DNA of 64,000 nucleotides from a virus (Duplodnaviria; Caudoviricetes): positions 1 through 64,000 of IMG/VR virus record IMGVR_UViG_2522572155_000001. One strand, 5' to 3'. This document shows, in pieces, positions 1-50,936 of the stretch; the stretch's first letter is position 1; the number at the start of each line of letters is the position of its first letter. A program made the position numbers and the translations under genes. A model generated the notes under the pieces. That model was not told the DNA's origin and did no database searches. It worked only from the letters and a program-made list of their open reading frames with translations.

Positions 1-2448
1 CTAGAAGGCTCGCGCGCCGTCCGCCCACCCGTGCCGGTGCGACGGGATCGTGCGACCCCAGTGCTCGGGGAGGGTTAGGTCGCCGGGATCATCGGGGCTC
101 GGGGGCTTCGGGGGAACGTGATCCGGCGCGACTGGGATTCGCTGCCGTAGCTCAGCGTCCCATCGGTACTTCTGCTGGAGGATCCGCTGTATGTCTTGCT
201 CAGAGTACCCGCGCTGCTGGAGCGCCGTGCGCGCGACTTCGACGTGGTGAGGAAGGGCTGTCCCCATGTTGATGCCGTGCATCAGAGTGTTGGTGTAGTC
301 GTGCAGGCGCATGTTGTAGCCGTTCTGCATGACCTTCTGAACACCAGGGTCCGACTCCGTCAGGCGCTTGACTTCTGGGTCTGAGAAGTCGTACTTGTCC
401 TCCGTCCACGCGTTGCCAAGCTCGCGACGCATGAGGTTGAAGGCCATCTCATCTAGATGCTCGGGCGGAGTGTTAGCGCCAGAGGCCAAGCCTCGTGCCT
501 TCTCCAGGTAGGGGGCGAGCATCTTGTTGTAGTGGTGGTCCGAGATCGCGTTGCGCGTGTCCAGGCTGATGAACTGCTCGGGCCAGTCACCCATGACCTT
601 CGCGTCCTCGTACGGGACGTTCACGTTGCGACGGTGGTAGGCGCGGGGATCGTCCCACGCCATGCGCTCATCGCCGCCTTCATCGTGACCGGGTACAGCG
701 CCGTGGTAGCGGTACAGGGCGTCCCGCAGCCGGTTAGTGTCGTCATCGGCGCCGTTGGTGCCCCAGCCGAGACCCATGCCCTTGATGCGGGCCATCTCGC
801 GCTCGTACTCGGAGTTCTCGTTGATCTCGTTGTAGAGGCCGTCCCAGAGTTCCTGCCAGTTGACCTTGTCCGGGTCGATCAGGTTGGGCTCGGTGTCGCC
901 GACGTCCTTGCCCATGCCGAGCGAATCAACGAAGTCCGCCGCTTCCTGGCTCTTGTTCTTGAGGTCTTCGTAGAGATGGTCAACGCGCTGATCCTCTGGG
1001 ATCTCGTTCCACTCGCGGGCGTCGGCAATCTGCTGCTTATTGAGCGGGCCGATGATGTTCCTGATGCACCAGGACTCGAACTGCTCAAGCGTCATGCCGC
1101 GCTCGAAGAGCTTGCGGATCTTCGTGTAGGTCGGCTCGTCGTTGTCCATCCATAGCTCGACCTGCTCGGTGTCCCACGAGTAGTTATCGCTGGCCACGGC
1201 CCAGAGCTTAGACCCCTTCGTCCAGTCCTCGGGAAAGGTATCGTCGGGCTTCTCGGACCACATGTCAGGGACGGTGTTCGGCACGCCCTCGCCGGGGCGC
1301 TGCATGTGCCAGCAGCGCCGCTGGGAGCACTCCCAGGCGCCATCGGGGTACAGGCGCCCGAGGGAGGAACCGTCTCGCCAGTGCATCTCCGAGCCGCACT
1401 GCGGGCAGTCGATGCCCTTCGGCATGATCTCCTTGAGCGCCTGCTCGGTGTCCGGCCAGCGGTGGCGGCAGCCCGCGCACTGGTAGTAGCGCGGGCCGGG
1501 TCCCCAGTTGTCGTGCTGATACTGGATGTCGCCGCCGCAGTACGGGCAGGGAATGAGGCCGTGCGCGGCTAGTTTGCCCTCCTTATTCCAGTCCTCGGGG
1601 AAGGTGAGGTCGCCGGGCGTGGTGTCCTCCTGCGCGCGCTGATGCTGCTCAAGCTCATCCTGGGCCGAGAGCCCTTCGAGCCACGCGAGGATCTCCTGTC
1701 CCTGGGCCTCTAGCCCTGGCCCCTGCTGCTGCCAGTACTCCATCTTGGGATCAGCGTTGGCCGTCCCGTCTGGGCCGAGGCGGTAGTCCGGCACTAGCCC
1801 GGATGCCTGGGCCTTCTCATAGCCGCGCATGTAGTCGGGGTCGTTGCGGCCGAGGGCGCGGGCGAAGTGCATACCGAGCTTCTGCGCGGCCTGGAGGTAG
1901 CTCGTGTCGTTGGTGAACCATCGCCGGTACCAGCCGTAGCCCTCCAGCCAGCCGAGCCAGTAGCCGATGTGGCTCTTCGTCACCCGAGGCAGCCGCTCGC
2001 TGGCAGACACGCGCACAGGATACTCCTCCCACCCGGCGGACTTCGAGAACGTGTTCTTCCACGAGACCGGGGCCTGGCCGAAGCTCCCCTGGGGGAGGGC
2101 GCCGTCCCGGTCAACGTCGAGCCACGGGAAGCGATTGAAGAAACCTTCGTTGGCAATGTTGCTCACGTGTAGCTGCTTGCCCGTGCGCTCGGCATATTGC
2201 TTCAGTGCCTCCACGAGCTTCGTGCCCTCTCCGGTGCCCTCGGGCTCCGCGATCACGGAATCGAGGGTCACGGAGTTCACATCCTCGTGGAGGGCCACTT
2301 CGACCGATGCCCGGGGCGTCCGGATTGTCGACAACGGACCCTGCTGGCTCAGCCGCCCGCCGAGGGTACGGGCAAGGAACTTGAGCGCGGCCCCGTTGTC
2401 CGCGTAGCCGTCGCCGTGCCCCTGCTCGTCCTGCCATTCAAGTGCCAT
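1..2448 (-). CDS. Polyvalent multidomain protein (GNAT-like N-terminus, tandem Zn ribbons, acidic helical domains)
   Basis: 815 aa; GNAT motif-A-like PEGTGEGTKLVEALKQYA; CPYC..CAGC and CPQC..CSQRRC; three (F/L)PE(D/H)W motifs closing modules. Confidence 0.75.
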   Translation of the reverse strand: MALEWQDEQGHGDGYADNGAALKFLARTLGGRLSQQGPLSTIRTPRASVEVALHEDVNSVTLDSVIAEPEGTGEGTKLVEALKQYAERTGKQLHVSNIANEGFFNRFPWLDVDRDGALPQGSFGQAPVSWKNTFSKSAGWEEYPVRVSASERLPRVTKSHIGYWLGWLEGYGWYRRWFTNDTSYLQAAQKLGMHFARALGRNDPDYMRGYEKAQASGLVPDYRLGPDGTANADPKMEYWQQQGPGLEAQGQEILAWLEGLSAQDELEQHQRAQEDTTPGDLTFPEDWNKEGKLAAHGLIPCPYCGGDIQYQHDNWGPGPRYYQCAGCRHRWPDTEQALKEIMPKGIDCPQCGSEMHWRDGSSLGRLYPDGAWECSQRRCWHMQRPGEGVPNTVPDMWSEKPDDTFPEDWTKGSKLWAVASDNYSWDTEQVELWMDNDEPTYTKIRKLFERGMTLEQFESWCIRNIIGPLNKQQIADAREWNEIPEDQRVDHLYEDLKNKSQEAADFVDSLGMGKDVGDTEPNLIDPDKVNWQELWDGLYNEINENSEYEREMARIKGMGLGWGTNGADDDTNRLRDALYRYHGAVPGHDEGGDERMAWDDPRAYHRRNVNVPYEDAKVMGDWPEQFISLDTRNAISDHHYNKMLAPYLEKARGLASGANTPPEHLDEMAFNLMRRELGNAWTEDKYDFSDPEVKRLTESDPGVQKVMQNGYNMRLHDYTNTLMHGINMGTALPHHVEVARTALQQRGYSEQDIQRILQQKYRWDAELRQRIPVAPDHVPPKPPSPDDPGDLTLPEHWGRTIPSHRHGWADGARAF

Positions 2449-2454
2449 CGCAAG

Positions 2455-2589
2455 TTACTGGCGCGTCCCCATGGGACAATGAGGGCAATCTGCGTTGTTG
2501 CCGGTGCGAATCCAGACGTGCAGGGGTACCCCGACTGGCAGGATCGCTGAAGACGGCCGCTGGCACAGACAGCACCTCAGGTTAGCCAT
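2455..2589 (-). CDS. Small Zn-finger protein (44 aa, not in ORF track)
   Basis: Manual translation MANLRCCLCQRP...DCPHCPMGTRQ; fills the gap between co-oriented genes. Confidence 0.55.
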   Translation of the reverse strand: MANLRCCLCQRPSSAILPVGVPLHVWIRTGNNADCPHCPMGTRQ

Positions 2590-2606
2590 CACGCGCGCCG
2601 TCTAGG

Positions 2607-2879
2607 CTAGGCAAAGTCTTCTCCCATCATGAAGTCGAGCATCGTCTGGAAGACCGGCTCGCGGGGGAGGATCCCAAGCTCGCAGTACACGGGATCGTGG
2701 TACATGAAGGCACGCTCGTAAAGGGTCAGGATGTTGTTGTCCTTTACCCAGTCGAGGACCGGCACGTATACGTCATGCCGGAGGTTGTTCCAGTGGATGC
2801 CGCCGTGGCCATCGATCGCGGACGGCTTCCACTGGCGCACGAGCGCGTAAAGCTCGACGGCAATGATCGCGTCGGTCAT
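2607..2879 (-). CDS. Hypothetical protein
   Basis: 90 aa, tightly packed with neighbours, normal composition. Confidence 0.7.
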   Translation of the reverse strand: MTDAIIAVELYALVRQWKPSAIDGHGGIHWNNLRHDVYVPVLDWVKDNNILTLYERAFMYHDPVYCELGILPREPVFQTMLDFMMGEDFA

Positions 2880-2881
2880 GG

Positions 2882-3265
2882 TTAGTCACGCAGTCCTGCG
2901 GCGGCCTCCATCACCTGAACGTAGAAGTCGTCCCAGGTAGACACATCCTTGCCGTCGTATAGCTCGGGGAGCGTCGGAAGCTGGTCGTCGGTGAAGCCTT
3001 CCTGGCGCAGGTAGTTACGCACGCCCATGCCGCCGCTCATGTGCCATGACCACTTGACCGTCTCGTCGCCAATGTCGACCGTCGCGGCAAACGGCTCCTC
3101 GTGGATGAAGTCGTGCCCGTAGCGCCGGTGACCTACTACCACGTCGGTGACCATGTCCGTGTCCCACCAGGACGCATTGCGAATGATCGCCACGGCGCGG
3201 TCGCGGTCTGCCTGCGACAGCTTCGCCCAGGCGATGTCGGGCCAGTTGTCGGGGAAGTTGCTCAT
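2882..3265 (-). CDS. Hypothetical protein
   Basis: 127 aa, AGGAG RBS upstream. Confidence 0.75.
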   Translation of the reverse strand: MSNFPDNWPDIAWAKLSQADRDRAVAIIRNASWWDTDMVTDVVVGHRRYGHDFIHEEPFAATVDIGDETVKWSWHMSGGMGVRNYLRQEGFTDDQLPTLPELYDGKDVSTWDDFYVQVMEAAAGLRD

Positions 3266-3274
3266 GTTCTACTC

Positions 3275-3883
3275 CTATCGGTGGGTCGCGATGACCGGGC
3301 CATCGGGGCTGTAGTCCTGAAGGTCGGGGTGCTCGCGCAGACGCTTGAGCGCGTTGTGGATGAACTGGTAGGTCGCGGCCTCGCTGCGGCCGATGACCTC
3401 TCCGATGTCCTTGCGCGTCCACGTCTCGTTCTCGCAGAAGGCGAGCCACAGCGCGAGGCGAGCCTCAGGGGAGAGGTCGGCCATTGCCTCCGCGAGGATG
3501 CCCCGGAGGTACGGGTCGACAAGCTCGATCTCCTCAGCCGGGATCAGGCTGGCCAAAGTCTGTGCGTCGCTGGGAGCACTGAATCGCTTCACCTGTACAT
3601 CGAGCGAGAGCACGTCGTAGCGATTGGGGTCACGACGAGTGCCCGTCTGGATCGAGCGGAGATAGTCTCGGATAGCACCGTACGCCCGGAAGTACACGAA
3701 CGACGTGAACGCCGCGCCCGCCTCCGGGTCCCAGCGCGGGGCTGCCTCAAGCGCGCCGAGGACACCCACCGACACAAGGTCTTCCGAGTCCGCGAGGTGA
3801 TGCGATAGATGGAAGTTCTTGCTCACGATGGACCGCACCATCGGGAGCACGCTATCGATGTCTGCTTCTGTGTACGCGGGCAT
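3275..3883 (-). CDS. Phage RNA polymerase sigma-70 family factor (FliA/WhiG-like)
   Basis: Region 2 EDLVSVGVLGALEAAPRWDP...FTSFVYFRAYGAIRDYLR; region 4 HTH TRKDIGEVIGRSEAATYQFIHNALKRLR; GGAGG RBS. Confidence 0.9.
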   Translation of the reverse strand: MPAYTEADIDSVLPMVRSIVSKNFHLSHHLADSEDLVSVGVLGALEAAPRWDPEAGAAFTSFVYFRAYGAIRDYLRSIQTGTRRDPNRYDVLSLDVQVKRFSAPSDAQTLASLIPAEEIELVDPYLRGILAEAMADLSPEARLALWLAFCENETWTRKDIGEVIGRSEAATYQFIHNALKRLREHPDLQDYSPDGPVIATHR

Positions 3884-4013
3884 TACTTCCTCCGGCTTAG
3901 AGTTGCGTCGCCGGAAACAGTAGGTTGCCCTTAGAGTTTGCGCAACCCTATCTAGGAAAGAGTAATCGCCCTGCTACTAGGTGTAGTCATTCGACCACCG
4001 GTAGAATGGTCGT

Positions 4014-4202
4014 ATGGCTACAGAGGGTCGGCTGGATGTCTACTGGCGCGAGGAGGGTGGCGCGTTCCACGTGAACATGTGGGACGGGGGCGAGGAGCTA
4101 GGAGAGGGGTACGGCAAGTCGCTCCACCAAGCCATCGAGGATGTAACGGATGACGTGTTTATCCGGCGACGCCTGAGCGGCCTTATCACCAGGCAGGAAT
4201 GA
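4014..4202 (+). CDS. Hypothetical protein, probably leaderless
   Basis: TAGAAT at 4002-4007, 6 nt before ATG. Confidence 0.7.
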   Translation: MATEGRLDVYWREEGGAFHVNMWDGGEELGEGYGKSLHQAIEDVTDDVFIRRRLSGLITRQE

Positions 4203-4365
4203 CCTCCCCTGCGAGCGCGGCCCCTCTGCTGCCAGGCCCGTGGAGGGAGGAGCCGCGCTTGGCGTGATACTAGCGGCGAGCATTCCTGTTTGCTCTGGAT
4301 GGGTTGAAAGATCCGGAACCACCGGGTATACGTTGAGTACATCAACAACGCCTGGGGAGGGGCCT

Positions 4366-4779
4366 ATGAGGTTCTGTTGTCCCGCAGTGCTCGCTGCCGT
4401 CGCGGTGCTCTGCATTCCGGTGAGTGCCCACGCGAGGCCGAACGCGGCGGGCTGCCCGACGTGCGCGAAGGTGCAGTTCGTCCAGCACATCTCGTGGAAG
4501 CGATTCAACGCCGAGTACGACTCGCGAGTGAAGAACCCGATCGTCAAGCCCGGGGTCAAGTCGCGCCTGAAGGCGTACGCCCGCCAGGAGAAGGACAAGT
4601 TCGCGGGCTGCAACGACAACGCGTTCATGAAGAAGGTCTGCCGAGCGGCGAAGGCATGTCTAGCGGCTGGCGGGTTTGCGCTCTACGCGGGCGTCGCGCA
4701 TGGGCAGAACGCGTGGCAGGCCGAGCGCGACGCAACCACAGCCTGCATCGGCGCGATCGTCGGTAGTCTCGCGTCATGA
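4366..4779 (+). CDS. Secreted Cys-rich basic protein with Gly/Ala-rich C-terminus
   Basis: GGGGAGG RBS; signal peptide ending AHA; six Cys in the mature part. Confidence 0.7.
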   Translation: MRFCCPAVLAAVAVLCIPVSAHARPNAAGCPTCAKVQFVQHISWKRFNAEYDSRVKNPIVKPGVKSRLKAYARQEKDKFAGCNDNAFMKKVCRAAKACLAAGGFALYAGVAHGQNAWQAERDATTACIGAIVGSLAS

Positions 4780-4928
4780 AGCGCAACCACTGGATCGTGT
4801 TCGCTGTATTCGCGGGCGCGCTCGCGCTGCTGATCGCGTTCTCGGGCCTGCCGGGGTGGGCGTGGGGGTTCTACGGCGTGATCGTCGCGCTGCTGCTTTC
4901 GGCGGCGCATCGGAGCGAGGCCGAATGA
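4776..4928 (+). CDS. Small two-TM membrane protein (50 aa, not in ORF track)
   Basis: MKRNHWIVFAVFAGALALLIAFSGLPGWAWGFYGVIVALLLSAAHRSEAE; ATGA overlaps at both ends. Confidence 0.75.
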   Translation: MKRNHWIVFAVFAGALALLIAFSGLPGWAWGFYGVIVALLLSAAHRSEAE

Positions 4929-5680
4929 GCGCTCGCGCACTCGCGATGCGGGCGGCCGTCTCGGTCGCCGCGCTCGCTGCTGTCGCCGCTCCGGCGTACG
5001 GAGCCCCCGGCGACGATGACGACGGACCGCCGATCGACATCAACTGGGGTCCGGCTCCCGAGGACACGAGCGACGACGAGCCGGACCTCCCGCCGCAGCC
5101 CGCACCGGCCCCCACAGAGGCTCCTACGGCCGTGCCGATCGTGGTGGCGACGCCGGAGCCCACCGCCTCACCGGTCGTGGACGTGGGGGAAGCGCAGGGC
5201 GGCCAGGAGACTGTCCAGGCGCCCGTGCCCACAGCGACGGCAACTCCTGTAGAGACGGTCATAGCGCCAGCCGTCACGCCACAGGGGCCAGACGCGCCAG
5301 GGGCGAGCGCTCCGCCAGCTACGGGGGTGCAGGACCAGAACCCGGTCGCGGCCCCCGTGGTCAAGCCAGAGGTGAAGAAAGTCAGTCGAAAGCCACATCG
5401 CGCCCGCGCCCACCGTCTCGGGGCGCGTGCGAAGGCGAAGGGCGGCGTGGCCCCGGCGAAGCAGGAGAGTCGTCTGCCGGTGGCTCAGGTACATGCCACG
5501 AACCCTACCGTCGTGGCGGTCGGAACGCGGCTCTCGGGCAAGGTCTACGTCGTCCGGCCGGGTGACTGCCTCAGCGTCATCGCGGCCCGCTACGGGACCT
5601 CCTGGCCCCGGCTGGCCGAGGTCAACCGGCTCGCCAACCCGGACCTGATCTACCCCGGCCAGGTGCTCCAGATCGTCTGA
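4925..5680 (+). CDS. Secreted LysM peptidoglycan-binding protein
   Basis: Signal peptide, Pro/Thr/Ala linker, C-terminal YVVRPGDCLSVIAARYGTSWPRLAEVNRLANPDLIYPGQVLQI. Confidence 0.9.
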   Translation: MSARALAMRAAVSVAALAAVAAPAYGAPGDDDDGPPIDINWGPAPEDTSDDEPDLPPQPAPAPTEAPTAVPIVVATPEPTASPVVDVGEAQGGQETVQAPVPTATATPVETVIAPAVTPQGPDAPGASAPPATGVQDQNPVAAPVVKPEVKKVSRKPHRARAHRLGARAKAKGGVAPAKQESRLPVAQVHATNPTVVAVGTRLSGKVYVVRPGDCLSVIAARYGTSWPRLAEVNRLANPDLIYPGQVLQIV

Positions 5681-5765
5681 TACGCTCGGAGGGCGCGGAA
5701 GTTGTGTTCGAAGATGGGTTCCGCGTTTCGCGGGCTCCGTGTCCCATACTGCGGCGGCTCGTAAT

Positions 5766-5793
5766 CAGAAGGCCCGCTCCGGCGGGCCTTCTG
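5766..5793. terminator. Hairpin terminator between convergent genes
   Basis: CAGAAGGCCCGC-TCCG-GCGGGCCTTCTG perfect 12-bp stem. Confidence 0.75.
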
Positions 5794-5805
5794 CGTTGTA
5801 TGGAC

Positions 5806-6108
5806 CTAGGCCCGCAGCGCGAGGAAGTCACGCCACGAGCGCGTCCCCGCTGCGCGGGGATCCTCCTTACGGAGGAGGGCCGCCTTCACCTGGGCCTCGG
5901 CCACGATCTCGCTGAGGCACTCGATGAACTCCTCTCCCTGAGCCTCGGTCGCGATCCCGGACGCCACGAGCGCGTCACGGACGTGCAGGGTCCAGTCCGC
6001 CAGCGGCGCGTAGGGCCGCCCCGGGGCCGGTGGATGCTCCCGGTGATCCGCGATGGTTGAGTGTCGTCCGATGGGGGCTGCTGGCATGGCAGCGATGATG
6101 TCCCGCAT
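5806..6108 (-). CDS. Hypothetical protein (start uncertain)
   Basis: 3' part of ORF 5806..6201 has protein-like composition and ends at the terminator. Confidence 0.5.
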   Translation of the reverse strand: MRDIIAAMPAAPIGRHSTIADHREHPPAPGRPYAPLADWTLHVRDALVASGIATEAQGEEFIECLSEIVAEAQVKAALLRKEDPRAAGTRSWRDFLALRA

Positions 6109-6125
6109 GCGGATAGAATACTCGC

Positions 6126-6533
6126 ATGCCCTCGGTCCGAGCGCTGACAGAAGAGCAGATTGACGAGCTAGCGCGCCTGTACGACGATGGTCGTGGGCCA
6201 ACCATGCATGATCTTGCTATGCAGTTTCACGTCAGCCCCAGCACCGTGAGCAAGTACCTCACCGAGAGAGGTGTCTCACTGCGGTGGGGAGGAAAGCGCA
6301 CTACACCCGAGCAGGACCGGATCGAGGAGATTCGGCGCCTCTACTGGGTGGAGTACAAGACGACCCACGAGATCGCGGACATCATCGGTATCTCCCAGCG
6401 CACCGTCCACAGCCGCATGCGCAAGTACGACGTGCCGACGAGGCGGGCCTGCTGGCGTCCGCCTCACATGCGCCCTAGGAAGGGGGAGTCTCGCGAGGCG
6501 GTCCGGCGGCGTCAGATCGTGTGGGGCGAGTAG
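6126..6533 (+). CDS. Double-HTH DNA-binding protein
   Basis: TMHDLAMQFHVSPSTVSKYL and TTHEIADIIGISQRTVHSRM; TAGAAT 6 nt upstream. Confidence 0.85.
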   Translation: MPSVRALTEEQIDELARLYDDGRGPTMHDLAMQFHVSPSTVSKYLTERGVSLRWGGKRTTPEQDRIEEIRRLYWVEYKTTHEIADIIGISQRTVHSRMRKYDVPTRRACWRPPHMRPRKGESREAVRRRQIVWGE

Positions 6534-6872
6534 CTGAGCTACTGCCCCCCCCGATGGCGTCGAGCGCTTCGCGGGCGATCCGCCTGGCCTCGCCTTCCCA
6601 TAGTCCCAGCCGCGCTGGAGGAGAAGGGGGAGGGGACTATCCTTGTTGATCGCGGACCGCCATCCCCACTCCATGGTGAACTGTCCCACGAGGAACTTGC
6701 CCCAGTTGAACTCCGAGCCCTGCGTCGCCTCGATGATGTGCGTCAGCATCTCTCTCCATTCTCCGGCCGCTGCGACTGAGCCTCGGCCTCCCGCAGGCTC
6801 TGCCGTGGTCACCGCTAGGACTCTATCGTGATTGCTGCCGCGATCCGTCCGAGATCCGGATAGTCTCATGGC

Positions 6873-7292
6873 ATGGGGAGAATCCTTCGGGCCTGGCGCG
6901 AGCTATGGAACGCGCGCGGCGAAATACCGATTTCCATCGTGATAGTCATGGTTCCCGCCTATCTCGTCGCCCTGTGGGCGCCGCTGCCGGAGGCGGTGTC
7001 CTCGATCATCACGGGCATCAGCCTGGCCGCGATGGTCAGCGCCATCGGCTACGCGACCGGCAGGCGCGACGGCATGCAGGCTGGCGCCGAGATGACCCTT
7101 GAGCGCGTCGCGAAGGTGCAGGAGACGGCGCATCTTGAAGGCTTCACGCGCTGGGCTGAGCATAAGCTCTCCAGAGACGAGGAGATGAGCGACGAGGAGC
7201 GAAGCTCTCTCCAGCGTGAGTTCCAGGCCGCCCAGACCCGCTTGCAAGAGCTTCGCCAAGAGGTCGAGTACCGCGAGGTTTCCGCGAGCTAG
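6873..7292 (+). CDS. Membrane protein (2 TM plus coiled coil)
   Basis: Two hydrophobic segments, then charged helical tail. Confidence 0.75.
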   Translation: MGRILRAWRELWNARGEIPISIVIVMVPAYLVALWAPLPEAVSSIITGISLAAMVSAIGYATGRRDGMQAGAEMTLERVAKVQETAHLEGFTRWAEHKLSRDEEMSDEERSSLQREFQAAQTRLQELRQEVEYREVSAS

Positions 7293-34805: not shown

Positions 34806-36011
34806 CTATCTCCGCTTGATGAAGGGGCCGGGTGCCTTGACCCATCCCGCCACCGTTAGGTCCGAGGCGGGGATGAAGGCACGGACGTGGTAGGGCTCCA
34901 TCGGCCCGTTGTTGCGGCACGGTCCCGCGAAGATCACCTCTACGACCTTGCCGAGCACGGGTAGCTCGTCCTCTCCCATGACGGTGCCGATCTCGTTCTG
35001 GGGAATCTCCATGTACTGCCCGGCGCCGTGCTCTTCGGACTTGCCTTCGAGGATGCCCATGTGGGGCTTGTCGAGCCGCACCTGCATGTCCGGCGTGAAC
35101 TCGGCTGCGGCGACGTGGGAGAACGTACCCCCTGCGTTCTGCACGGGGTTGAAGGGATCGGGGACCTTGGCGCCGGGGACGGAGACGGCGTTGGGCTGCG
35201 AGATGCCACCGCCGGGGGTCGTGCCCGGGATCGGTAGCTGCAACTGGTCGACGCCGAAGCCGGGCAGCATCGGCTGCGGCGGGATCACGCCGGAGCCCGG
35301 GGGAGCCATCCCAGCCGGAGCCGGAGCCGGGGCGGGCGCAGGGGACGGCGCAGGGGTCTGCTGAGGGCTCGGGAGGGGTGGAGGGGCGTAACCGGCGGCG
35401 TCGAGGTCTAGCTGCCCCGCAGGCGGCCCGGGAGGGGCTCCAGGGGGCGCGCTCGGAGCGGGTCCCATCTGGCCCTTGGGCAGCGGCCCGTGCTCACTCG
35501 GGTCGTAGTCTTCATCGACCGGCGTGCGGCGCGCCTGCCAGAACGTGGCCAGCACGTGCGAGCAGACGCGTCCCTCGTACTTCTTCCACTTGCGCGTGCG
35601 CTGCCAGGCGTACTGGTCCCAGGGGCATTCGCACTGCCAGCCGGTGATCGTCCACGAGTTGGGGTCGTCGCGGGAGAACTCGCAGTTGTACTCGCCGTGG
35701 TCTCCGATGACGTGACCCACCACCATGTTGCGGTGGTTGCGCAGAACCTGTACCTGCCCGGAGTCGATCAGGCGCTTGGCCTTCGCCATGATGTCGTCCC
35801 AGTGGGACTGCTTGGTCACCGAGCCGGTGATCTCGAACTGCGCGGCCTCGTAGCCGCACTCGGCTAGGGAGACACGGGTGACGTAGAGGGCGACGGCGCG
35901 ATCGTCGGCCGTGCCTCCAAGTACCTTGATGAGGGCGACGCCGGGATCCGTCTCCTCCCAGGAGACATCGACTGCGCCGAGACGGAACACCTTGGAGGGG
36001 AGAGCGGGCAT
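34806..36011 (-). CDS. SWIM Zn-finger protein with Pro-rich linker and SH3-like C-terminus
   Basis: WQCECPW...GRVCSHVLA (CxC..CxH). Confidence 0.75.
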   Translation of the reverse strand: MPALPSKVFRLGAVDVSWEETDPGVALIKVLGGTADDRAVALYVTRVSLAECGYEAAQFEITGSVTKQSHWDDIMAKAKRLIDSGQVQVLRNHRNMVVGHVIGDHGEYNCEFSRDDPNSWTITGWQCECPWDQYAWQRTRKWKKYEGRVCSHVLATFWQARRTPVDEDYDPSEHGPLPKGQMGPAPSAPPGAPPGPPAGQLDLDAAGYAPPPLPSPQQTPAPSPAPAPAPAPAGMAPPGSGVIPPQPMLPGFGVDQLQLPIPGTTPGGGISQPNAVSVPGAKVPDPFNPVQNAGGTFSHVAAAEFTPDMQVRLDKPHMGILEGKSEEHGAGQYMEIPQNEIGTVMGEDELPVLGKVVEVIFAGPCRNNGPMEPYHVRAFIPASDLTVAGWVKAPGPFIKRR

Positions 36012-36570: not shown

Positions 36571-37150
36571 GAGTATTACTCTGCCTGTACGAGCGCGAGT
36601 TGTAGTAGCGCTTCGAGCCGCCGTTGCGCTTGGCGATGAACGAGTTCAGCAGGCGAGTGACGCGGTGGGGACGGTAGTCCAGTACCTCGACCGAGACGTT
36701 GATGTTACGCGCTCTAGACCTCTCGCCACGTGCGTACGGGTGGTTGTGGATGTGGCCGTGCACGTGAATCTCCTTGTGGTCATGCACGAACAGCGGGTAG
36801 TGCGAGAAGGAGACGGTATAGCCCCGGTAGGGCATCGAGAACGGCTTCAGGACGGTGAAGCCGAGTGCCTCGTAGTCCCACTTCTTCTTGTCATGGTTAC
36901 CGAGGATGATGAACTTCTTGCCAGGCAGATTCGGCGTCAGTTCTTCCTTGAACCGGTCGTATCCTTCCTGCCCGCCGAAGAACAGGTCTCCGAGGTGAAG
37001 GATCGTGTCTGAGTCATCGATGGTGCGTTGCCAGCGCTTGACCATCATGACCTCGTGGTCATAGGGGCGACCGCAGAACTCAAGGATACGCTCATGGTAG
37101 AAGTGCGTATCGGAGAGTACGTAGAACGGCGCCTTCAGTGGGGGAGCCAT
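36542..37150 (-). CDS. Calcineurin-like metallophosphoesterase
   Basis: SDTHF, HLGD, GNHD, SHYP, HGHIH. Confidence 0.92.
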   Translation of the reverse strand: MAPPLKAPFYVLSDTHFYHERILEFCGRPYDHEVMMVKRWQRTIDDSDTILHLGDLFFGGQEGYDRFKEELTPNLPGKKFIILGNHDKKKWDYEALGFTVLKPFSMPYRGYTVSFSHYPLFVHDHKEIHVHGHIHNHPYARGERSRARNINVSVEVLDYRPHRVTRLLNSFIAKRNGGSKRYYNSRSYRQSNTRDRGTGSRA

Positions 37151-43190: not shown

Positions 43191-46100
43191 TCAGGGCTGA
43201 TGGTAGCCCAGGGCCGTGTGCACATCCTCGACCGGCACCTTGAAGCCCGGATCGGCGTACGGGTTCCGGCTGCCGTTGTGTTCGCTCACCGTGCGGAAGC
43301 GATAGTGTCCGCCCTCGTTGATGAGTTCGTGAGGCGTGCCGTAGGTATCCTTGAACTGCCCGCCGCCCATTCGCATCGCCTGTTCCAGGCTTTCCCGGTC
43401 GTAGTGGTGAGTCTCGGTGCAGGGGTTCGGGTGCTCCTGGGGCTCGACCCACGGGTGATACTCGACCGGCGGTCCGTCGAAGTGGTGATTGAGCCCAATC
43501 GGCTGCCAACCCTGAAAGTCCTCAATTGAGCGTCGGGGGTAGCCTAGCTTCTCGTCAATTGCACGGTGCTCATCCAACTCGTGCTCGGCGTAGCGGTGCG
43601 CGGAACGCGGCCGTCCGCACTGCCCGCACTCGTCGTAGTCGGACCACTGACGCTGATCCTCTACGGTGACGTTGTGCTTGCTCGTGGTGTCGAACACGAC
43701 CGGGTGGCCGTGTTCGGACTCCTTCATCACCGTTAGGTCGCGCGGGGGCGGCGGGCGCTTCTCATCGCCGCGACAGTAGGCACACTTGTCGCTCGGCAGT
43801 CCCATCAGGGTTCCGGTGCCCGGGACGACCTTGTACGTACCGTGACAGTTATGGCACTGGCCGAGGAGATTCACCTTCTTCATGTAAACCAGGAGATCGG
43901 TGTAGTCCTTCCCGTCGTGGATCAGGTCCATACCCGTAGCCGCCTTCTGCTGCTCGATGATGTTTCGGGCCATCGTCTCGGCCTCGGCCTCGGCCTTATC
44001 GGGCGGGAGCGACTTCAGGTACTCGGTAATCAGGTGATTGGGCACCGTATTCGGATCAGGCTCAGGCGTCCAGTCTTCGGGGAAGTAGTCGGGCACGTCG
44101 GACGACAGCTTAGCGCCCGCGAGCAGCCCTGTCACCTGCTGGAGCAGCCCTCGGTTGTCCAGCATCTTGTAGGTGAGGTTCGAGGCGGCGAAGTCCCCCT
44201 TGCCCGCCGCCTGGTCGCGCATCCGCTTGCGGTGTAGCTGCCGGTAGAACATGACGGCCTTGTCGGGCTCGTAGCGCAGCAGCCGATCCATCTTGTCGGC
44301 GTTGATGAGCGCCTGCGTGTATGCCTCGTTCTCCTCGTGCTCGGGATCGTGCGCGAGATCGGGCTGGGGCGGGACGAGCCACTTGTCCTGGATGACGTTG
44401 TAGCCCGAGCGTAGACCGGGCTGGTAGAGGTCGGCGGGCTTGATGCCGCGCGCCACGACGTAGGTCTGTAGCTCATGTGTGGTGCCCGGCATGATGAGGC
44501 CGTCGCACGCCTGGATCATCAGGCCGATCATCTCCGAGCGCGACCACTCGGGGAACTGCTCGGCGTCCACGAACAGCGACACGTCCACGTCCGAGTGATC
44601 GGCGTACTGGTACGTCGTGAGGCTACCGGTGAGATACAGGCTGCCCCACTTCTCGCAGCCCGTGTAACCCGCCTCGCTTAGGATGCTGTAGATCGAGTCC
44701 ATGATCCACAGCCGATGCTCGTGCTTGAGGCGCGGAGTGGGGGAGGCCGGGTCATCCCATACCGTGGGGTCGAGTGTGTCGCGGATCGGGTCGAGGACGT
44801 TGCCCTGGCGCTTCGGGATGCGCGGGTCCGGCTTCACGGAGTCGTTGATGTCCTCCTCGATCACGCGCTTCCACCACGGACCCTCGTATGGGCCGCCGTC
44901 GCTCTCGCCCTCAAACCACATCATGAGGGCGTTCTGCATCGCCTTGTCGGCCATCTCCGGCGTCGTGCCGGGGTGGATCCTCACGAGGCGGTCGATCGCG
45001 TCCTGGCGCGAGAGGTTGTCGCCGTTGACCATGAGGTTCCACGCCGACATCTGGAGATCGGAGTCGGGGTACCGGCGGAAGTCAGTGGCAACACGCGCCG
45101 CACGTAGCTGCGACGGGGGTACGATGTTCTCCTCGCCCGTCTCGGCGTGCACAACGCTGACAAGCGGCTCGTGCGGGTCATTGACGATGTCGGTCACATA
45201 GTGCGGCTGACCGTTGAGGAGAACGCGCTGCCCGTGCGTAAGCTGGCGCTGGAAGAGTGCCTGTGCGTCCTCCGTCGACACCGGCTGAGCCATCGGGTGC
45301 TCCGCGTTGGTGAAGACGTGATCGCACGCGCCCTGCTCGCAGCGCTGTAGCTGGCGCCTGATGTTTCCAATCTGGACCGGGACCGGCTGTCCTCGGCCGC
45401 CGCCATGGACGCTGCCGAAGCCGGTAACGATGTGGCGGTTGCCGTTCGCGTCGGGCCACGAGTACATCGGGTGGCCCTGGGCGTTGTACTTGTCCAAGGA
45501 CCAGTGCGGCATCTCGGCCGCCATGAAGTCGGCCTCGGACTTATAGTTCGCGGCTAGGCGTGATTGAGCGTCCGGCAGTGCGGACAGACGCCTGTCGGCC
45601 CGGGCAGCGCGATCGGCTCCCGGCAGCCCGAGCAGGTCACGACGGTCGTCCGGCCGCCCTGCGCCGATGTGAGTGCGATCTTCTTCATGCTCGTTACGCG
45701 ATTGTACCGGGCCGCCCTGTAGTGGTCCATGGCGCTTCGCCACGGTACGGTCAAACAATGTCTCCTGCCCCGGTGGCGTCCTCTTCGGCCTCGGCCGAGG
45801 GTCGTAGGGCTCAATTGACCGCCACCTCGGGATCAGTGCGCCGCCGAGGTGGTTGTAGTACTGCGCGGCGATCGGGTCAATCTCCTGGTGGAACTCCAGC
45901 GGACGGAGCTTGCGCCAATCCGCTACGCCGTTGTCGGCCATGTGCTCGGTCAGGGCTTCGCGAAGATAGTCCTCGTGACCGGCCTCCTTCGCGTGCTGGA
46001 GGAGGAAGTTCGCCCATTCGGGACGGTAGCCCGGCTGTACCTGGACGCGCTGGTTCCGCCCGTCCTGCCACGTGTTCCACGACGACTCGAACCGGTCAGG

Positions 46101-49100
46101 CTCAATCATCGAGCCGATGATCTTCTCGTAGTTCGGGTCCCCGATCTCTAGGTCGGGTCCCTCGACGCCATGCTCGTCGGCGTCGCCCTGCGCGATCCGG
46201 TAATCCTCGGGCTCGTTCTCGTACCACTGATCCTGCGCATACGGGTGCATATCCGGCAGATGGTGTTCGCGGCCACCCACGTAGCCGCCGTTGTACCCGA
46301 CCAACTGTGTGAGAGATTCGGGACCGTCCATGTGGTAGGTGTCATCCCACCACGGCTGGTAGGCAGCCGCCTCGGCGCCCTTCGTCCCGAGGTACTCGTT
46401 CATGCGGTCGTTGTACTCGTCGTCCACGTCCTGGTTGGAGCGACCCTTGTACTCCGTCGTCTCCGACCCGGGACCGACCCGGGCGCGGATCACGCCGCCG
46501 CAGTGATCGCACTGCTGGCCATGACCGTATCGACCGTAGTCATGTCCACAGTTGGCGCACTCGGCGTGATCCGGCGTCATCTGGAGCGTAGCGTGGGGAT
46601 GGTTCTTGCGGTCGCGAAGCGACAGGAAGACAGAACTGCCTAGCTCTGCATCATCGCCATAGCTCCCAACGCAATGGCCCATCATGTCGCCCTCGTCGCG
46701 CATCTCATGCCGGTTGTTCAACTGCCGCACGGTCCAGCCGTCAGGGAACTCGTGAACAACCTCACCGAGATCCTTGCGGGCCTTAGCCTCCTGGTCGGCG
46801 CGCCAGTCGGTAATGCGGGTCAGTAACTCCGGCGCACCCAACTGCATGATGTCGATGCCCTGACGGGCCTTCTTCATCTGATCGAGGTCGCGCTGAATCT
46901 CGGCCAGCGTCTGCGGGTTGAGCGGGGACTGCCCGGGACCGGGGACGCCAAGTCCTCCCACATCATTTGGGATCAGGCGTCCCTTACGCCACTCACGAAC
47001 GACCCAGGGGAGCAGCTTGTCGGCCTGGCGGTAGCCCTGTTCATCAAGGAAACGCAGGAACTCCTCACCCTCCGGCGTCTGCATGTCCGGGCGCGCGGCG
47101 AGCCAGTCGAACTTGGACGCGGTGCGCCCCATGTAGGTGTGTGCGCCCCACGGGCAGGTGCACGGCTGCCCGGTGGTGATGTGCGAGTGCGGGCGTCGCT
47201 TCACGCTCTTGTGAGGCGTTGCGCCCTGGCGGGGCGTCAAGCCCTCCGGCAGAACGCGCGGGTCAACCTCGCCCGGCACCGCGCCCATGTCCTCGAAGGG
47301 GTACTCACGGCCGGGCACAGGATCATCGCCGCCGACCATCTGGCGGTGTCCGCACCCAAGGCACAGGAGAGTTGGAACGCCGGTCTGTTCGAGGTACATC
47401 TGGTGCTCGCCGCATTCGGGGCATAGCAGCCACTCTTCGTCTACAGAGGCCCACTTAGAGGGCGTTACCGAGCCAGTCGTAGGTCCTAGAGGGTGCTCGG
47501 TTTCCGGAAGGGCGCGCAAGGCATCGCCCAGTGGCGCAATTAGCTGCTCGTGCATCTTCATGCGATCCCCAAAGGTGTAACCGGACGAGCAGCCGTTGCA
47601 CACGTAGCCGTTCATCTCAGGCACGATCGAGAGGTCGCTGCCGCACCTCGGGCACGGGGCACCGAACTGCATCAGGTAGGGCCTCTTGGGCGGGTTGACA
47701 GCAGATGTCTTAGAGGGCGTTACCTCGCCGTCCTGGTCGTCAACTAGGCGCAGGCGCTCAGGAGCGATGTGGGTGACATCGCTCTGCCAGGCGCCAGGGC
47801 GACCCCTGCCTGGCGCGGGGTCCCAGTAGTCCGCCGGAACCTGCTTGAACCACGGATCGCGCTTCAGCCTACCGACAGCGCGAGGATGAACCTCCCACAA
47901 GTCGTGCGGCTCGATGCCGTTACAAATCTCGGCGTAACGCCGCGCCTCTGGGAGGTTGTCCCAGAAGTGCATCGGGTTGCCCGTAACGGGGTTGGGGACC
48001 ATACCCTCAGCAAGCACCTGCTCGCGTATGGAGGAAGGCAGAAGCCTGTAGTACGGACGTACGCGCGCCGAGGCGACAGAGGACCGACGAGTCATCTTCT
48101 CCCAATGCTCGTACGTCGGGGCAAAGCGCAGACCGCCTCCAGCGAAGCGTCTCGCCTTCTCGATGGCATTCGGGTCAGGAGACCTACTGTCGCTCAGGGT
48201 GTACCACCCGCTCGGATGGATGACAATAGGACACTCGTAGTCCTGCGGCCAGGGGCAACGGGTCGCAGCTACATCGTCGTGGTGCGGGGCCAGCCCCGGA
48301 GCGCGGACGTTCCACATCACGGGCTCGTTGTTGACGAGGAAGCCCTTGCCCCACTCGCCGGGAGTCCAGTCCATGTGGAGCGGCGTCGAGGCCGTGCGCT
48401 CCTGGTCTACAGAAGATGCCTTAGCGGGCGCCGCCGGGATGTACGCCGGGAGATGCGTATCTCCGCGACGATGCGCGACGGTGGCACGATGCCAGCCATC
48501 GAGCAAGGTGCCCTCATGGTCGATGACCACTTCGGGCATCGGCCCAGGCATCTGCGCGAGGCTATTCACCCGGTCGGGCTCCACGTCCAGGGAGCCCACC
48601 CCGGCGATGCTCGCCAGCGGGTGTTGTGTGCGCGTCCAAGAGGGATGCTGGTGGATCTTGCGCTCCATGCGCTCCCACCAGATGTCGTTATCCACCCGAG
48701 AGCGTCCACGCGAGCCCTTGTGGAGGGCACGCATGTGCTCCATAACCTGCTCAGGTGAGATCACGGCCACAGACTCTACAGAACCGCCATTAGGGGGCGC
48801 TGACGCCATCCGGCTCCAGTCGCGAACCTTGTTCTTGAGCCACGGGTTATCCCAATGGAAGGCGTCAATCGGCTGGCCACCCGCACGAAGCTCCTCGGTG
48901 AGCCGGTTGAACAGACCCTTCCCACGGTGCTCAGGATGCGTGTACGCCGAGCCAAGCATGATGCCGCCTGGCACACCCTGCCAGGTCACGCTCGCGACCG
49001 GCTCGCCGTTGTAGTACGCGACGCGACCGTCGCCCTGGCCATGCTTCGTCGTCAGCGTGTCACCGCCACGGCTATCGAAGCGCGGGACGAAGGTCCCGGT

Positions 49101-50936
49101 GTCGTGGGAGAACCATCCCTCGTCGGCGGGACGAATCTCGTACGGGTCTACAGAATCCGCGTTAGAGGGCGTTGACGCCTGACGAGTACTCGCCCACTCG
49201 TTCACACGCGCCATGTACTCGGGCTTCGGATCGGAGTTCTTCATCCCTAGCGGCTGGTCAACGCGCGCCATGTTCGACCGGAGGCCGGAGTAGAAGCTCA
49301 CATGCGGGATGTTGTCCGGGTCTCGGAGGGAGTGCGGGTAGTTCGACCAGCCAGCCGGGTCAATGCGGTGGTGAAGTTCCAGGACCGGGTGCCCTGCCGC
49401 CTTCGCATCCTCGTAGTACTCGGACAGCGGGCCGTAAGGGATGTCCACTCCGCTGTCATCCTCATCTGGGTCGAGCCAATCCCCCTGAGGGTGGCTGGCC
49501 CACATGCCCGCCGGAGAGTCGGAGTAGTCGCCGTTCCAGCAGTTGTGCATCAGTGCACCCTCGCGGTACACATCGCTCCAGGTGGTCGGACGGCGGATGG
49601 TCCAGCCGTCCGGGAAGGCGTGGACGACCTCGGACTGATCGGGTGCGCCAATGGCCGCCTCTACTTCGGCGGCGCGACGGAGCTTTTGCGTCCTGGTCTC
49701 CGCTCCCACGCGCTGGGAGTTTACAGAAGGCCCGTTCGCAGGCGCTGACGCGACGGTGCGATCGAAGAGCGACGCCTGTCCCTCGGGATCCTGGGTCGGC
49801 ACCACGGGCCACGGCTTGCCGTTGACGCCCGTGATGTTGACGGCGTCACCCGTGGGGACGCGCCACTCCTTGAGTGAGCCCATCGGGTAGCCGTGACCAT
49901 TCTTGACCGGCTGGGCCTCAACGACGCCGATGTGGTTCGGATTGACCTTAGCGAACCACTCGGGGTCGACACTAGTGAAGAGCGGGTCAGGCGGACCGCC
50001 GCTCCAGCCACGCATCGGCGCATACGGGTTACGCCACCACTCGAATGCCTCATGCGCCTGCTCCTCTGGCGAGAGGTGACGGTAGACGCTCTGGGCGGTG
50101 TAGATCGGCTTCTCAGGCGACCCGAGGGCGTAGGCGTCCTCGTAGGGGTAGTAGCCGTACTGCGCCCACTCCTCAGCCGGAAGGGTCTGAAATCCGCCGC
50201 TCATACCCTTTAGCGGGTGGCCCTCGGGTAGCAAGTGTGAGTAGAACGGCTTACGGCCCAGGAGGAGGTCATCAAGCGCGCGAGGATTGCCCCGCGACCA
50301 GTCATGGTCACCGAACATCTTGCGTAGCCACGGCTCCTTGGCTCCCTCGCCCTTCTCGGCCATCTCGACCAGGCGGTGGATCGGGAGGCGGCCGGAGGCA
50401 ACGTCGGCGCCCTCGCGCATGGCCATGAGGATGTTGTGCGCGATCGTCGGGTCGTCGGTCAGCGAGATCGTCTCATCGTCACCGCCGCCGAGTCCACGAC
50501 CGGCGTTGACGCCGTTGAGATCGAGTTCATGACGCGACCGCAGAACCCCGGACTTCAGAACGTCGGGCAGGTTCGTGGTGACGTGATAGAGCTTCTTCGG
50601 CAGCGGCTTCCAGGACCCGGTGTTCTCGTGGTACGGCGCCCAGGAGTTCGAGTCGGCCTCGTAACCGCTCGGGCGGTACCCGCGAGCCACCGCCTCTGCG
50701 GGGGTGAGACGGCCGGTCGCGATGGCATGGCGGGCGGCGCGATCCCACTCCTTCTCCAGGCTCCGAACCGTCTCGTGATCGCGGTCTAGGTGCCGCGTCC
50801 GCGCCCCGTAGTCCTCGTATGGCTCGTACGGCCGCTGCGAGGGATAGCCTCGATACTCGTCACGGGTCTGGTTGAGGATGTCGTGGTTCACCGGGATGAC
50901 CGGCATCGCCTTGCGCCTGAACGGATTACGCATCAT
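43191..50936 (-). CDS. Giant polyvalent protein: ART, PcfJ, GNAT, ParB-like, WTPG domain, second ART-like, Zn ribbons, second PcfJ, HicA-like, SH3-like, Pol-beta nucleotidyltransferase
   Basis: LYHVT..ISLT..KEWRV; EGALMHNC and EGDMMGHCVG..SLRD; HPEHRGKGL; LLDGWHR; LTGSLTTYQYADHSDVDV. Confidence 0.85.
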   Translation of the reverse strand: MMRNPFRRKAMPVIPVNHDILNQTRDEYRGYPSQRPYEPYEDYGARTRHLDRDHETVRSLEKEWDRAARHAIATGRLTPAEAVARGYRPSGYEADSNSWAPYHENTGSWKPLPKKLYHVTTNLPDVLKSGVLRSRHELDLNGVNAGRGLGGGDDETISLTDDPTIAHNILMAMREGADVASGRLPIHRLVEMAEKGEGAKEPWLRKMFGDHDWSRGNPRALDDLLLGRKPFYSHLLPEGHPLKGMSGGFQTLPAEEWAQYGYYPYEDAYALGSPEKPIYTAQSVYRHLSPEEQAHEAFEWWRNPYAPMRGWSGGPPDPLFTSVDPEWFAKVNPNHIGVVEAQPVKNGHGYPMGSLKEWRVPTGDAVNITGVNGKPWPVVPTQDPEGQASLFDRTVASAPANGPSVNSQRVGAETRTQKLRRAAEVEAAIGAPDQSEVVHAFPDGWTIRRPTTWSDVYREGALMHNCWNGDYSDSPAGMWASHPQGDWLDPDEDDSGVDIPYGPLSEYYEDAKAAGHPVLELHHRIDPAGWSNYPHSLRDPDNIPHVSFYSGLRSNMARVDQPLGMKNSDPKPEYMARVNEWASTRQASTPSNADSVDPYEIRPADEGWFSHDTGTFVPRFDSRGGDTLTTKHGQGDGRVAYYNGEPVASVTWQGVPGGIMLGSAYTHPEHRGKGLFNRLTEELRAGGQPIDAFHWDNPWLKNKVRDWSRMASAPPNGGSVESVAVISPEQVMEHMRALHKGSRGRSRVDNDIWWERMERKIHQHPSWTRTQHPLASIAGVGSLDVEPDRVNSLAQMPGPMPEVVIDHEGTLLDGWHRATVAHRRGDTHLPAYIPAAPAKASSVDQERTASTPLHMDWTPGEWGKGFLVNNEPVMWNVRAPGLAPHHDDVAATRCPWPQDYECPIVIHPSGWYTLSDSRSPDPNAIEKARRFAGGGLRFAPTYEHWEKMTRRSSVASARVRPYYRLLPSSIREQVLAEGMVPNPVTGNPMHFWDNLPEARRYAEICNGIEPHDLWEVHPRAVGRLKRDPWFKQVPADYWDPAPGRGRPGAWQSDVTHIAPERLRLVDDQDGEVTPSKTSAVNPPKRPYLMQFGAPCPRCGSDLSIVPEMNGYVCNGCSSGYTFGDRMKMHEQLIAPLGDALRALPETEHPLGPTTGSVTPSKWASVDEEWLLCPECGEHQMYLEQTGVPTLLCLGCGHRQMVGGDDPVPGREYPFEDMGAVPGEVDPRVLPEGLTPRQGATPHKSVKRRPHSHITTGQPCTCPWGAHTYMGRTASKFDWLAARPDMQTPEGEEFLRFLDEQGYRQADKLLPWVVREWRKGRLIPNDVGGLGVPGPGQSPLNPQTLAEIQRDLDQMKKARQGIDIMQLGAPELLTRITDWRADQEAKARKDLGEVVHEFPDGWTVRQLNNRHEMRDEGDMMGHCVGSYGDDAELGSSVFLSLRDRKNHPHATLQMTPDHAECANCGHDYGRYGHGQQCDHCGGVIRARVGPGSETTEYKGRSNQDVDDEYNDRMNEYLGTKGAEAAAYQPWWDDTYHMDGPESLTQLVGYNGGYVGGREHHLPDMHPYAQDQWYENEPEDYRIAQGDADEHGVEGPDLEIGDPNYEKIIGSMIEPDRFESSWNTWQDGRNQRVQVQPGYRPEWANFLLQHAKEAGHEDYLREALTEHMADNGVADWRKLRPLEFHQEIDPIAAQYYNHLGGALIPRWRSIEPYDPRPRPKRTPPGQETLFDRTVAKRHGPLQGGPVQSRNEHEEDRTHIGAGRPDDRRDLLGLPGADRAARADRRLSALPDAQSRLAANYKSEADFMAAEMPHWSLDKYNAQGHPMYSWPDANGNRHIVTGFGSVHGGGRGQPVPVQIGNIRRQLQRCEQGACDHVFTNAEHPMAQPVSTEDAQALFQRQLTHGQRVLLNGQPHYVTDIVNDPHEPLVSVVHAETGEENIVPPSQLRAARVATDFRRYPDSDLQMSAWNLMVNGDNLSRQDAIDRLVRIHPGTTPEMADKAMQNALMMWFEGESDGGPYEGPWWKRVIEEDINDSVKPDPRIPKRQGNVLDPIRDTLDPTVWDDPASPTPRLKHEHRLWIMDSIYSILSEAGYTGCEKWGSLYLTGSLTTYQYADHSDVDVSLFVDAEQFPEWSRSEMIGLMIQACDGLIMPGTTHELQTYVVARGIKPADLYQPGLRSGYNVIQDKWLVPPQPDLAHDPEHEENEAYTQALINADKMDRLLRYEPDKAVMFYRQLHRKRMRDQAAGKGDFAASNLTYKMLDNRGLLQQVTGLLAGAKLSSDVPDYFPEDWTPEPDPNTVPNHLITEYLKSLPPDKAEAEAETMARNIIEQQKAATGMDLIHDGKDYTDLLVYMKKVNLLGQCHNCHGTYKVVPGTGTLMGLPSDKCAYCRGDEKRPPPPRDLTVMKESEHGHPVVFDTTSKHNVTVEDQRQWSDYDECGQCGRPRSAHRYAEHELDEHRAIDEKLGYPRRSIEDFQGWQPIGLNHHFDGPPVEYHPWVEPQEHPNPCTETHHYDRESLEQAMRMGGGQFKDTYGTPHELINEGGHYRFRTVSEHNGSRNPYADPGFKVPVEDVHTALGYHQP
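45554..45688 (-). CDS. Nested 44-aa Zn-finger gene in an alternative frame of the 2581-aa ORF
   Basis: MKKIALT..CSGC..CPHC; GC-ending codons in this frame; TGGACC-N17-TACAAT upstream. Confidence 0.6.
   Translation of the reverse strand: MKKIALTSAQGGRTTVVTCSGCREPIALPGPTGVCPHCRTLNHA
47439..49745 (-). repeat. Six direct 27-bp dif-like repeats at 47439, 47694, 48405, 48774, 49146, 49719
   Basis: Coding-strand consensus RCGCCCTCTAA-N6-TTCTGTAGAC; spacings 255, 711, 369, 372, 573 bp. Confidence 0.85.

Follow-up and report, generated by a model that had tools for sequence, protein, structure and literature searches.

How can a complete small gene sit inside a far longer open reading frame (ORF) without either frame being broken, and which of the two frames encodes protein there? 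The question arises in a 64,000-nt stretch of viral DNA (Caudoviricetes; IMG/VR record IMGVR_UViG_2522572155_000001), referred to here as the window. The window is part of contig C5 of a 6.6-Mb genome, carries phage-type genes, and has a GC content of 65%, against 72% for the whole genome. On its minus strand, a 2581-codon ORF runs without a stop codon across a 44-aa ORF that lies wholly within it, on the same strand and in frame +1. An earlier note on this DNA had described this small ORF, here called zn44, as an autonomous mini-gene with its own promoter, inserted or engulfed at a module boundary. Our analysis suggests that zn44 looks like a genuine small gene that is read through in another frame by the long ORF. 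It was probably engulfed when two neighbouring genes became one ORF, rather than inserted. The features on which this reading is based are collected in Table 1.

Table 1. Features of the long ORF, of the nested small ORF and of the comparison locus L014. Coordinates are those of the window, except for the L014 features, which follow the L014 contig; frame 0 is the frame of the long ORF.
Feature	Coordinates	Strand	Basis or remark
Long ORF, 2581 codons (2581 aa)	50936..43191	-	ORF scan; open throughout
Part A of long ORF (residues 1-1734), successive modules closing with GQETLFDRTVA-K	45735..50936	-	last ~500 aa 65% identical to P0002
Terminal linker of part A, frame 0 (KRHGPLQGGPVQS)	45699..45737	-	degenerate copy of the linker at other module junctions
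Promoter-like match TGGACC-N17-TACAAT	45701..45729	-	pattern search; chance level
Frame-+2 TAA	45694..45696	-	5 nt before the zn44 ATG
zn44, 44 aa (ATG 45688; TAG 45556-45554)	45554..45688	-	ORF, motif, codon signal, and positional counterpart zn59 in L014
zn44 Cys knuckles	CSGC 45634-45623; CPHC 45586-45575	-	
N-terminal part of zn44 as read through in frame 0 (37 codons, rich in Arg, Asp, Ala and Gly)	45588..45698	-	poor synonymous codons; conserved in no relative
Overlap of zn44 and part B as in L014: second CxxC and tail of zn44 over frame-0 LSALPDAQSRL	45557..45587	-	position alignment
Part B of long ORF, from ATG 45524 (MAAEMPHW...)	43191..45524	-	free-standing protein in relatives
33-nt junction motif, five copies	47440-47472, 48406-48438, 48775-48807, 49147-49179, 49720-49752	+	coordinates given on the plus strand
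L014 polyvalent gene, 1067 aa, with CCA-enzyme domain	1601..4804		not homologous to part A
L014 zn59, 59-aa ORF, CGWC-X14-CHIC	4801..4980		ATG overlaps the upstream stop as ATGA
L014 gene B, 737-aa part-B homologue	4905..7118		frame +2 relative to zn59

The product of the long ORF contains a PcfJ-like domain; one of its modules matches phrog_36119 and, as we read its GS...DxD pattern, appears to carry a Pol-beta-type nucleotidyltransferase motif. The long ORF comes after an ORF of 1534 codons whose final part is a CCA-adding enzyme, and its neighbours are this CCA-enzyme fusion and an ArdC-like gene. We regard the product as a polyvalent protein, in view of its PcfJ-like domain, its nucleotidyltransferase module, its zinc ribbons, and modules that are found reordered in P0002, P0083 and P0089. 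Polyvalent proteins have been described from phages and conjugative elements (Iyer et al. 2017; PMC5512222). The present protein resembles them in being a giant multi-domain prophage protein whose modules recur, reordered and free-standing, in its relatives. It differs in that no processing peptidase domain was detected in it by Pfam; the Pfam and PHROGs scans revealed no peptidase family at all, MPTase included, a distant one being possible. The three mentions of processing in Iyer et al. 2017 (PMC5512222) concern proteolysis and not overlapping genes, and no terms for zinc ribbons, linkers or adjacent genes were found in its text. Searches at the DNA and protein level against GenBank phages and PLSDB plasmids returned no close relatives of the locus, and the locus was also absent from 40 relatives of the host.

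The small ORF is present as the earlier note had claimed, with mostly GC-ending codons. Its start codon, four cysteines and stop codon are all intact. The cysteines form the motif CSGC-X12-CPHC, with the two CxxC pairs at residues 19-22 and 35-38, a spacing that falls within that of zinc ribbons (two CxxC pairs approximately 8-20 residues apart). A weak AlphaFold2 model (mean pLDDT 58, pTM 0.34) places short strands around the knuckles. In size and in its two-knuckle cysteine pattern, zn44 is similar to YhfH (PF14149) and phage NinF (PF05810), yet it differs from both in having no above-threshold sequence match in Pfam, where the sole hit was to DUF7837 (10 residues, with 17.7 bits where the cut-off is 27.8). 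Its nearest neighbours in a protein language model were small hypothetical proteins and the YhfH and NinF clusters, at scores of 0.89-0.91 that shuffled sequences sometimes also attain. The homology search that the earlier note had called for came back empty: the 86-aa frame-+1 ORF that ends in zn44 has no detectable homologues, and no paralogue of zn44 was found in its own genome. In relatives, nucleotidyltransferase modules are followed by an SGEYIA-KTAA tail, and the start of zn44 (SMKKIALTSAQ) was considered as a possible vestige of it; this origin was rejected, the profile score being 0.5 bits against up to 5.7 for shuffles.

Codon usage provides a second view of which frame is coding. 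Measured over windows of 30 codons, the long frame has a GC3 of 0.8-1.0, which gives way to 0.57-0.73 between approximately 45776 and 45537, with its minimum of 0.57 at 45746-45657, while GC3 of frame +1 climbs to 0.83-0.93 over 45746-45567. The host genome, at 72% GC and with its abundance of shadow ORFs, gave no usable GC3 background for judging this shift; we instead drew 8658 windows of 44 codons from the 12 long ORFs of the window. Against this background, the excess of frame +1 over frame 0 at zn44 (0.32) is the highest in any confidently called gene, and was surpassed in one ORF only, which we take to be mis-called. A synonymous-codon score, which disregards amino-acid composition, gives 0.49 for zn44, compared with a true-frame mean of 0.47; among +1 off-frame windows, scores this high make up just 0.13%. 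The long frame, by contrast, scores -0.04 over 45698-45561, and only 0.4% of true-frame windows are so low. The long frame thus has the off-frame appearance over zn44 that had been attributed to it, in GC3 as well as in synonymous codons, and the per-frame codon check that had been proposed favours the short frame and disfavours the long one over the same stretch. A 12-codon log-odds frame scan was too noisy for locating the points at which the frames switch.

These statistics alone do not prove that zn44 is a gene, because a Pro/Ala-rich, low-complexity linker in a 413-aa gene (35313-35444, minus strand) imitates the signal. In this linker, GC3 is 0.68 in frame 0 and 0.91 in frame +1, a false +1 signal, and the synonymous-codon scores are 0.15 and 0.60, respectively, a pattern weaker than that at zn44. 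The linker is a useful negative control for frame plots.

Comparison with relatives shows that zn44 does lie at a module boundary, as the earlier note had placed it. When the final 1182 residues of the long ORF were used in an exhaustive profile search, 935 relatives were recovered. The closest relative, P0002 (1297 aa), is 65% identical as far as LFDRTVA and diverges at exactly this point, continuing in frame into an unrelated module. A metagenome scan for related loci found only L038, the contig of P0002, whose translated similarity to the window ends at 45735. On the far side of zn44, the part-B homologues P0008, P0009, P0089, P0006 and P0078 are free-standing proteins, each with a methionine 10-25 residues ahead of an xAExPHW motif, which in the window comes after the short ORF. 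In part B itself, a His/Cys-rich domain at the N-terminus is accompanied by a Pol-beta-type nucleotidyltransferase module and by other modules. The frame-0 peptide between LFDRTVA and the start of part B is conserved in no relative. The earlier note had held that conservation of this peptide, combined with a lack of homologues or expression of the short ORF, would count against the small gene, and no relative was found to keep its stretch from 45698 to 45588.

Several further observations concern the exchange of modules. Besides P0002, two segments of L038 (1150-2261 and 7777-8523) share several genes with the window (2455-4190 and 7356-8168) in a different order, and we read L038 as a related mobile element with rearranged modules. 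In P0089 (769 aa), the part-B N-terminal domain and the nucleotidyltransferase come first, and the C-terminal module resembles the N-terminus of the 2581-aa ORF, matching its YHVTTN... region (window 50936-49700); the same modules thus occur in reversed order. Five module junctions of the long ORF also have in common a 33-nt DNA motif (TCTACAGA...TTAG...GGGCG on the plus strand), which encodes ASAPxNGxSV[ED] and uses the codons CCT, AAT, TCT and GTA, rare in this GC-rich element. A further, degenerate copy lies at the junction 45737-45699.

The most informative comparison comes from L014 (IMG/VR UViG_3300027976_000082), a distant viral contig. Among 35 loci recovered by a part-B alignment scan of viral contigs, the part-B N-terminal domain was found in L014 alone, and only there does a small zinc-ribbon ORF overlap the start of a large gene. 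Scans of viral and genome contigs with pieces of the junction or with module alignments gave no match at the junction, and the three-gene layout is known from this single relative with DNA context. Its three genes, all on one strand, are a polyvalent gene, the small ORF zn59 and gene B. The likeness to the window extends to gene order, strand, the two-CxxC small ORF and the frame relation, gene B and part B each being in frame +2 relative to the small ORF. It extends also to the distance from the TAG of the small ORF to the ATG of the M(V)AAExPHW motif, which is 26 nt in L014 (MVAAEYPHW) and 29 nt in the window (MAAEMPHW). The loci differ in that the upstream gene of L014 stops, in the ATGA overlap, and has no homology to part A, and in that the tail of zn59 is 14 residues longer. 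Furthermore, LSALPDAQSRL lines up by position with the N-terminus of gene B, and two ATG codons of gene B there correspond to CTG in the window (45587-45585 and 45578-45576).

The small ORF of L014 looks like a coding sequence. In its non-overlapping part, GC3 is 0.68, compared with 0.41 in either alternative frame, and both alternatives are interrupted by stops. Its codon score, 0.07, is normal, the mean for in-frame sequence being 0.09. It has one relative, which is 95% identical. A global alignment of zn44 with zn59 gives 26% identity, and BLASTP does not align the two, so that their homology rests on position, frame and motif. Two-knuckle cysteine motifs occur 11 times in the 105,367 aa of the six-frame translation, with approximately three judged to lie in non-coding frames. 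Because such motifs are rare in non-coding frames, their presence at the same position in both loci is unlikely to be fortuitous; we estimate the odds that chance alone put a cysteine motif at exactly this place in both at no more than about 1 in 10,000.

How, then, might the small gene have come to lie inside the long one? We propose that zn44 would originally have been a separate small zinc-ribbon gene, normally situated between two large polyvalent-protein genes and just upstream of the part-B gene. Judged by its position, it may encode a small protein that is expressed together with part B as its partner or regulator. In this prophage, no stop codon follows the terminal linker of part A, and its frame runs across zn44 out of frame. 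This read-through would yield an Arg/Asp/Ala/Gly-rich spacer of approximately 46 residues, probably disordered. Part B happens to share the frame of part A, and the two join in frame into one 2581-codon ORF, with a short, putatively dual-coding stretch at 45698-45554. The frame that part A enters is the -1 frame of zn44, and in real genes of this element approximately 30% of 45-codon stretches in the -1 frame lack a stop. A read-through is thus to be expected by chance that often, and nothing more is needed to account for it. Of the two origins named in the earlier note, engulfment is favoured over insertion, because the units are separate genes in L014, P0002 diverges at LFDRTVA, and part-B homologues start as free-standing proteins. 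Taken as a whole, the account in which a separate zn44 was overrun by a fusion of its neighbours that is real in the organism, with zn44 still translated, seems to us slightly better than an even bet. The component claim that translation of zn44 persists, with ribosomes starting internally at ATG 45688, we regard as evenly balanced.

Details of the junction bear on whether the fusion is real. Frame 0 is backed by homology and by the linker pattern as far as PVQS (45701-45699). Immediately downstream lies the frame-+2 TAA, which part A, being one or two bases out of phase with it, reads past, and a second frame-+2 stop, TGA, overlaps the start of zn44 as ATGA, out of phase with part A. Between 45741 and 45524, frame 0 contains no ATG, GTG or TTG, and its tail RLAANYKSEADF, ahead of ATG 45524, resembles the N-terminal tails of part-B homologues. 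As there is no such start codon, only ribosomes that arrive from upstream or start at a CTG could translate this tail. The lack of starts and the likeness of RLAANYKSEADF together favour a real fusion over an assembly error, mildly so, since ATG 45524, with GAGG 8 nt upstream, would be usable. We infer that the fusion is real in the organism. It is conceivable, though we hold the idea tentatively, that both frames are translated and that the fusion was selected since the downstream module had lost its own ATG, which is ATG in L014 and CTG here. Should both frames be translated, the same 135 bases might both constitute a gene and provide the spacer that separates enzyme modules, a dual role that we consider possible but doubtful.

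The start of zn44 has features of its own. No good Shine-Dalgarno sequence precedes ATG 45688, and most genes of the element are likewise without one. The sequence TAA-CGAGC-ATG resembles that of the gene at 37150 (GCGTAACGGGCG-ATG); the starts at 37150 and 45688 on the minus strand share GCGTAACG[AG]GC(G)-ATG, that is, a TAA, a spacer of 5-6 nt and an ATG. This arrangement may be a common stop-restart junction in the prophage. An alternative ATG at 45730 on the minus strand would give a 58-aa version in the short frame (MDHYRAARYNRVTS followed by zn44), and near it 15 of 18 third positions in frame +1 are G or C over 45739-45686. The alignment with zn59 favours ATG 45688 over ATG 45730 as the start.

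The promoter that had been proposed for zn44 found no support in a comparison with those of the prophage. The match TGGACC-N17-TACAAT exists, but it occurs once in 8.2 kb, where 1.4 are expected from shuffles, and its TACAAT is made of the linker codons GTA CAA TCG (V-Q-S) that close the upstream module. The prophage has its own promoter family, TTGAC-N18-TAnnnT, with seven strict minus-strand sites and an eighth (25041) that fits loosely. In all eight, a pyrimidine-rich stretch follows the -10 box, and in four of them the ATG lies 7 nt past it. The candidate differs from this family in its -35 box and spacer (TGGACC and 17 nt rather than TTGAC and 18 nt), and has 12 purine-rich nucleotides (CGCGTAACGAGC) before the ATG in place of a 7-nt pyrimidine-rich gap, so that ATG 45688 stands 13 nt past the -10 box. 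An own promoter for zn44 is thus not supported.

Other readings of the locus deserve consideration. The giant ORF could be an artefact, an alternative that the earlier note had also named: there would be three separate genes, and an indel of 1-2 nt introduced by sequencing or assembly at approximately 45699-45694 would hide the TAA that, placed in frame, ends part A. Such a layout would match that of L014, would make TAA-CGAGC-ATG a normal stop-spacer-start of this element, as at 37150, and would give part B a start at ATG 45524; moreover, the fused 2581-codon form has been seen in a single assembly only. We nevertheless consider an artefact unlikely, given that two neighbouring giant ORFs stay open over 12.3 kb, which points to a low local rate of indel errors, that no homopolymer of at least 4 nt lies within 45770-45540, and that the coding-looking tail RLAANYKSEADF would be left without a canonical start. 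A different possibility is that the fusion is real and zn44 is a dead relic, the long frame alone being translated, while the codon signature and cysteines persist since the fusion is recent. Coupling to an upstream stop, in the manner of the ATGA of L014, has been lost in phase, neither a supported promoter nor a Shine-Dalgarno sequence is present, and the locus has no close relatives in which selection could show. Yet zn44 is intact from start to stop, with all four cysteines, its codons are as well chosen as those of true genes, and the want of a Shine-Dalgarno sequence is shared with most genes of the element; we find the relic quite improbable.

Insertion of an autonomous mini-gene, equipped with its own promoter, at the module boundary seems very unlikely. 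The promoter-like match does stand just upstream, and the prophage does place promoters a few bases before ATG starts, but this match is at chance level and departs from the family in box, distance and base composition as set out above, its TACAAT derives from linker codons, and L014 indicates that the small gene has long been resident at this position. It is still harder to see the pattern as chance, with only the long frame coding and a charged, low-complexity linker whose first codon positions mimic a +1 signal. The linker of the 413-aa gene provides a similar, weaker case; even so, the synonymous-codon score of the long frame at zn44 lies below that of 99.6% of true-frame windows, and the short frame holds a complete zinc-ribbon motif, a start, a stop and a positional counterpart in L014, which makes chance a highly improbable explanation. 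A programmed +1 frameshift near 45700 would generate a second product in which part A ends in the zinc ribbon, and in-frame units of linker and zinc ribbon do occur elsewhere in the 2581-aa protein and in relatives. With no in-phase slippery heptamer (the sole XXXYYYZ is out of phase), no homopolymer of at least 4 nt, no in-frame stop and no obvious pause site, we give a frameshift next to no weight.

The nested geometry favoured here is already known. In phage lambda, Rz1 lies inside Rz as a nested, or overprinted, gene. The present case is similar in that a short ORF lies wholly within a longer one, on the same strand, in the +1 frame, and in a phage genome. It differs in that the short frame would carry the older and better coding signal, the long frame having arrived later in this stretch, and in that the predicted products of zn44 and the long ORF have no known joint function. 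What is particular to this locus is its likely origin, with a small resident gene swallowed by the fusion of its neighbours. If real, the locus would be a snapshot of giant multi-enzyme phage proteins in the process of growing, as neighbours merge through the loss of one stop codon. A small gene caught between the merging neighbours would thereby turn into a nested, dual-coding gene. There would also be implications for annotation: that of such giant ORFs can conceal small conserved genes, and promoter-like hexamers can come from linker codons.

The junction also contains a 10-nt direct repeat, CAGGGCGGCC, at 45719-45710 and 45661-45652 on the minus strand, the copies being 58 nt apart. The first copy encodes QGG in frame 0 and the second QGG in frame +1. 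A deletion between the copies would fuse part A in frame with the zinc ribbon. By a rough estimate, the probability of such a repeat arising by chance is approximately 0.1.
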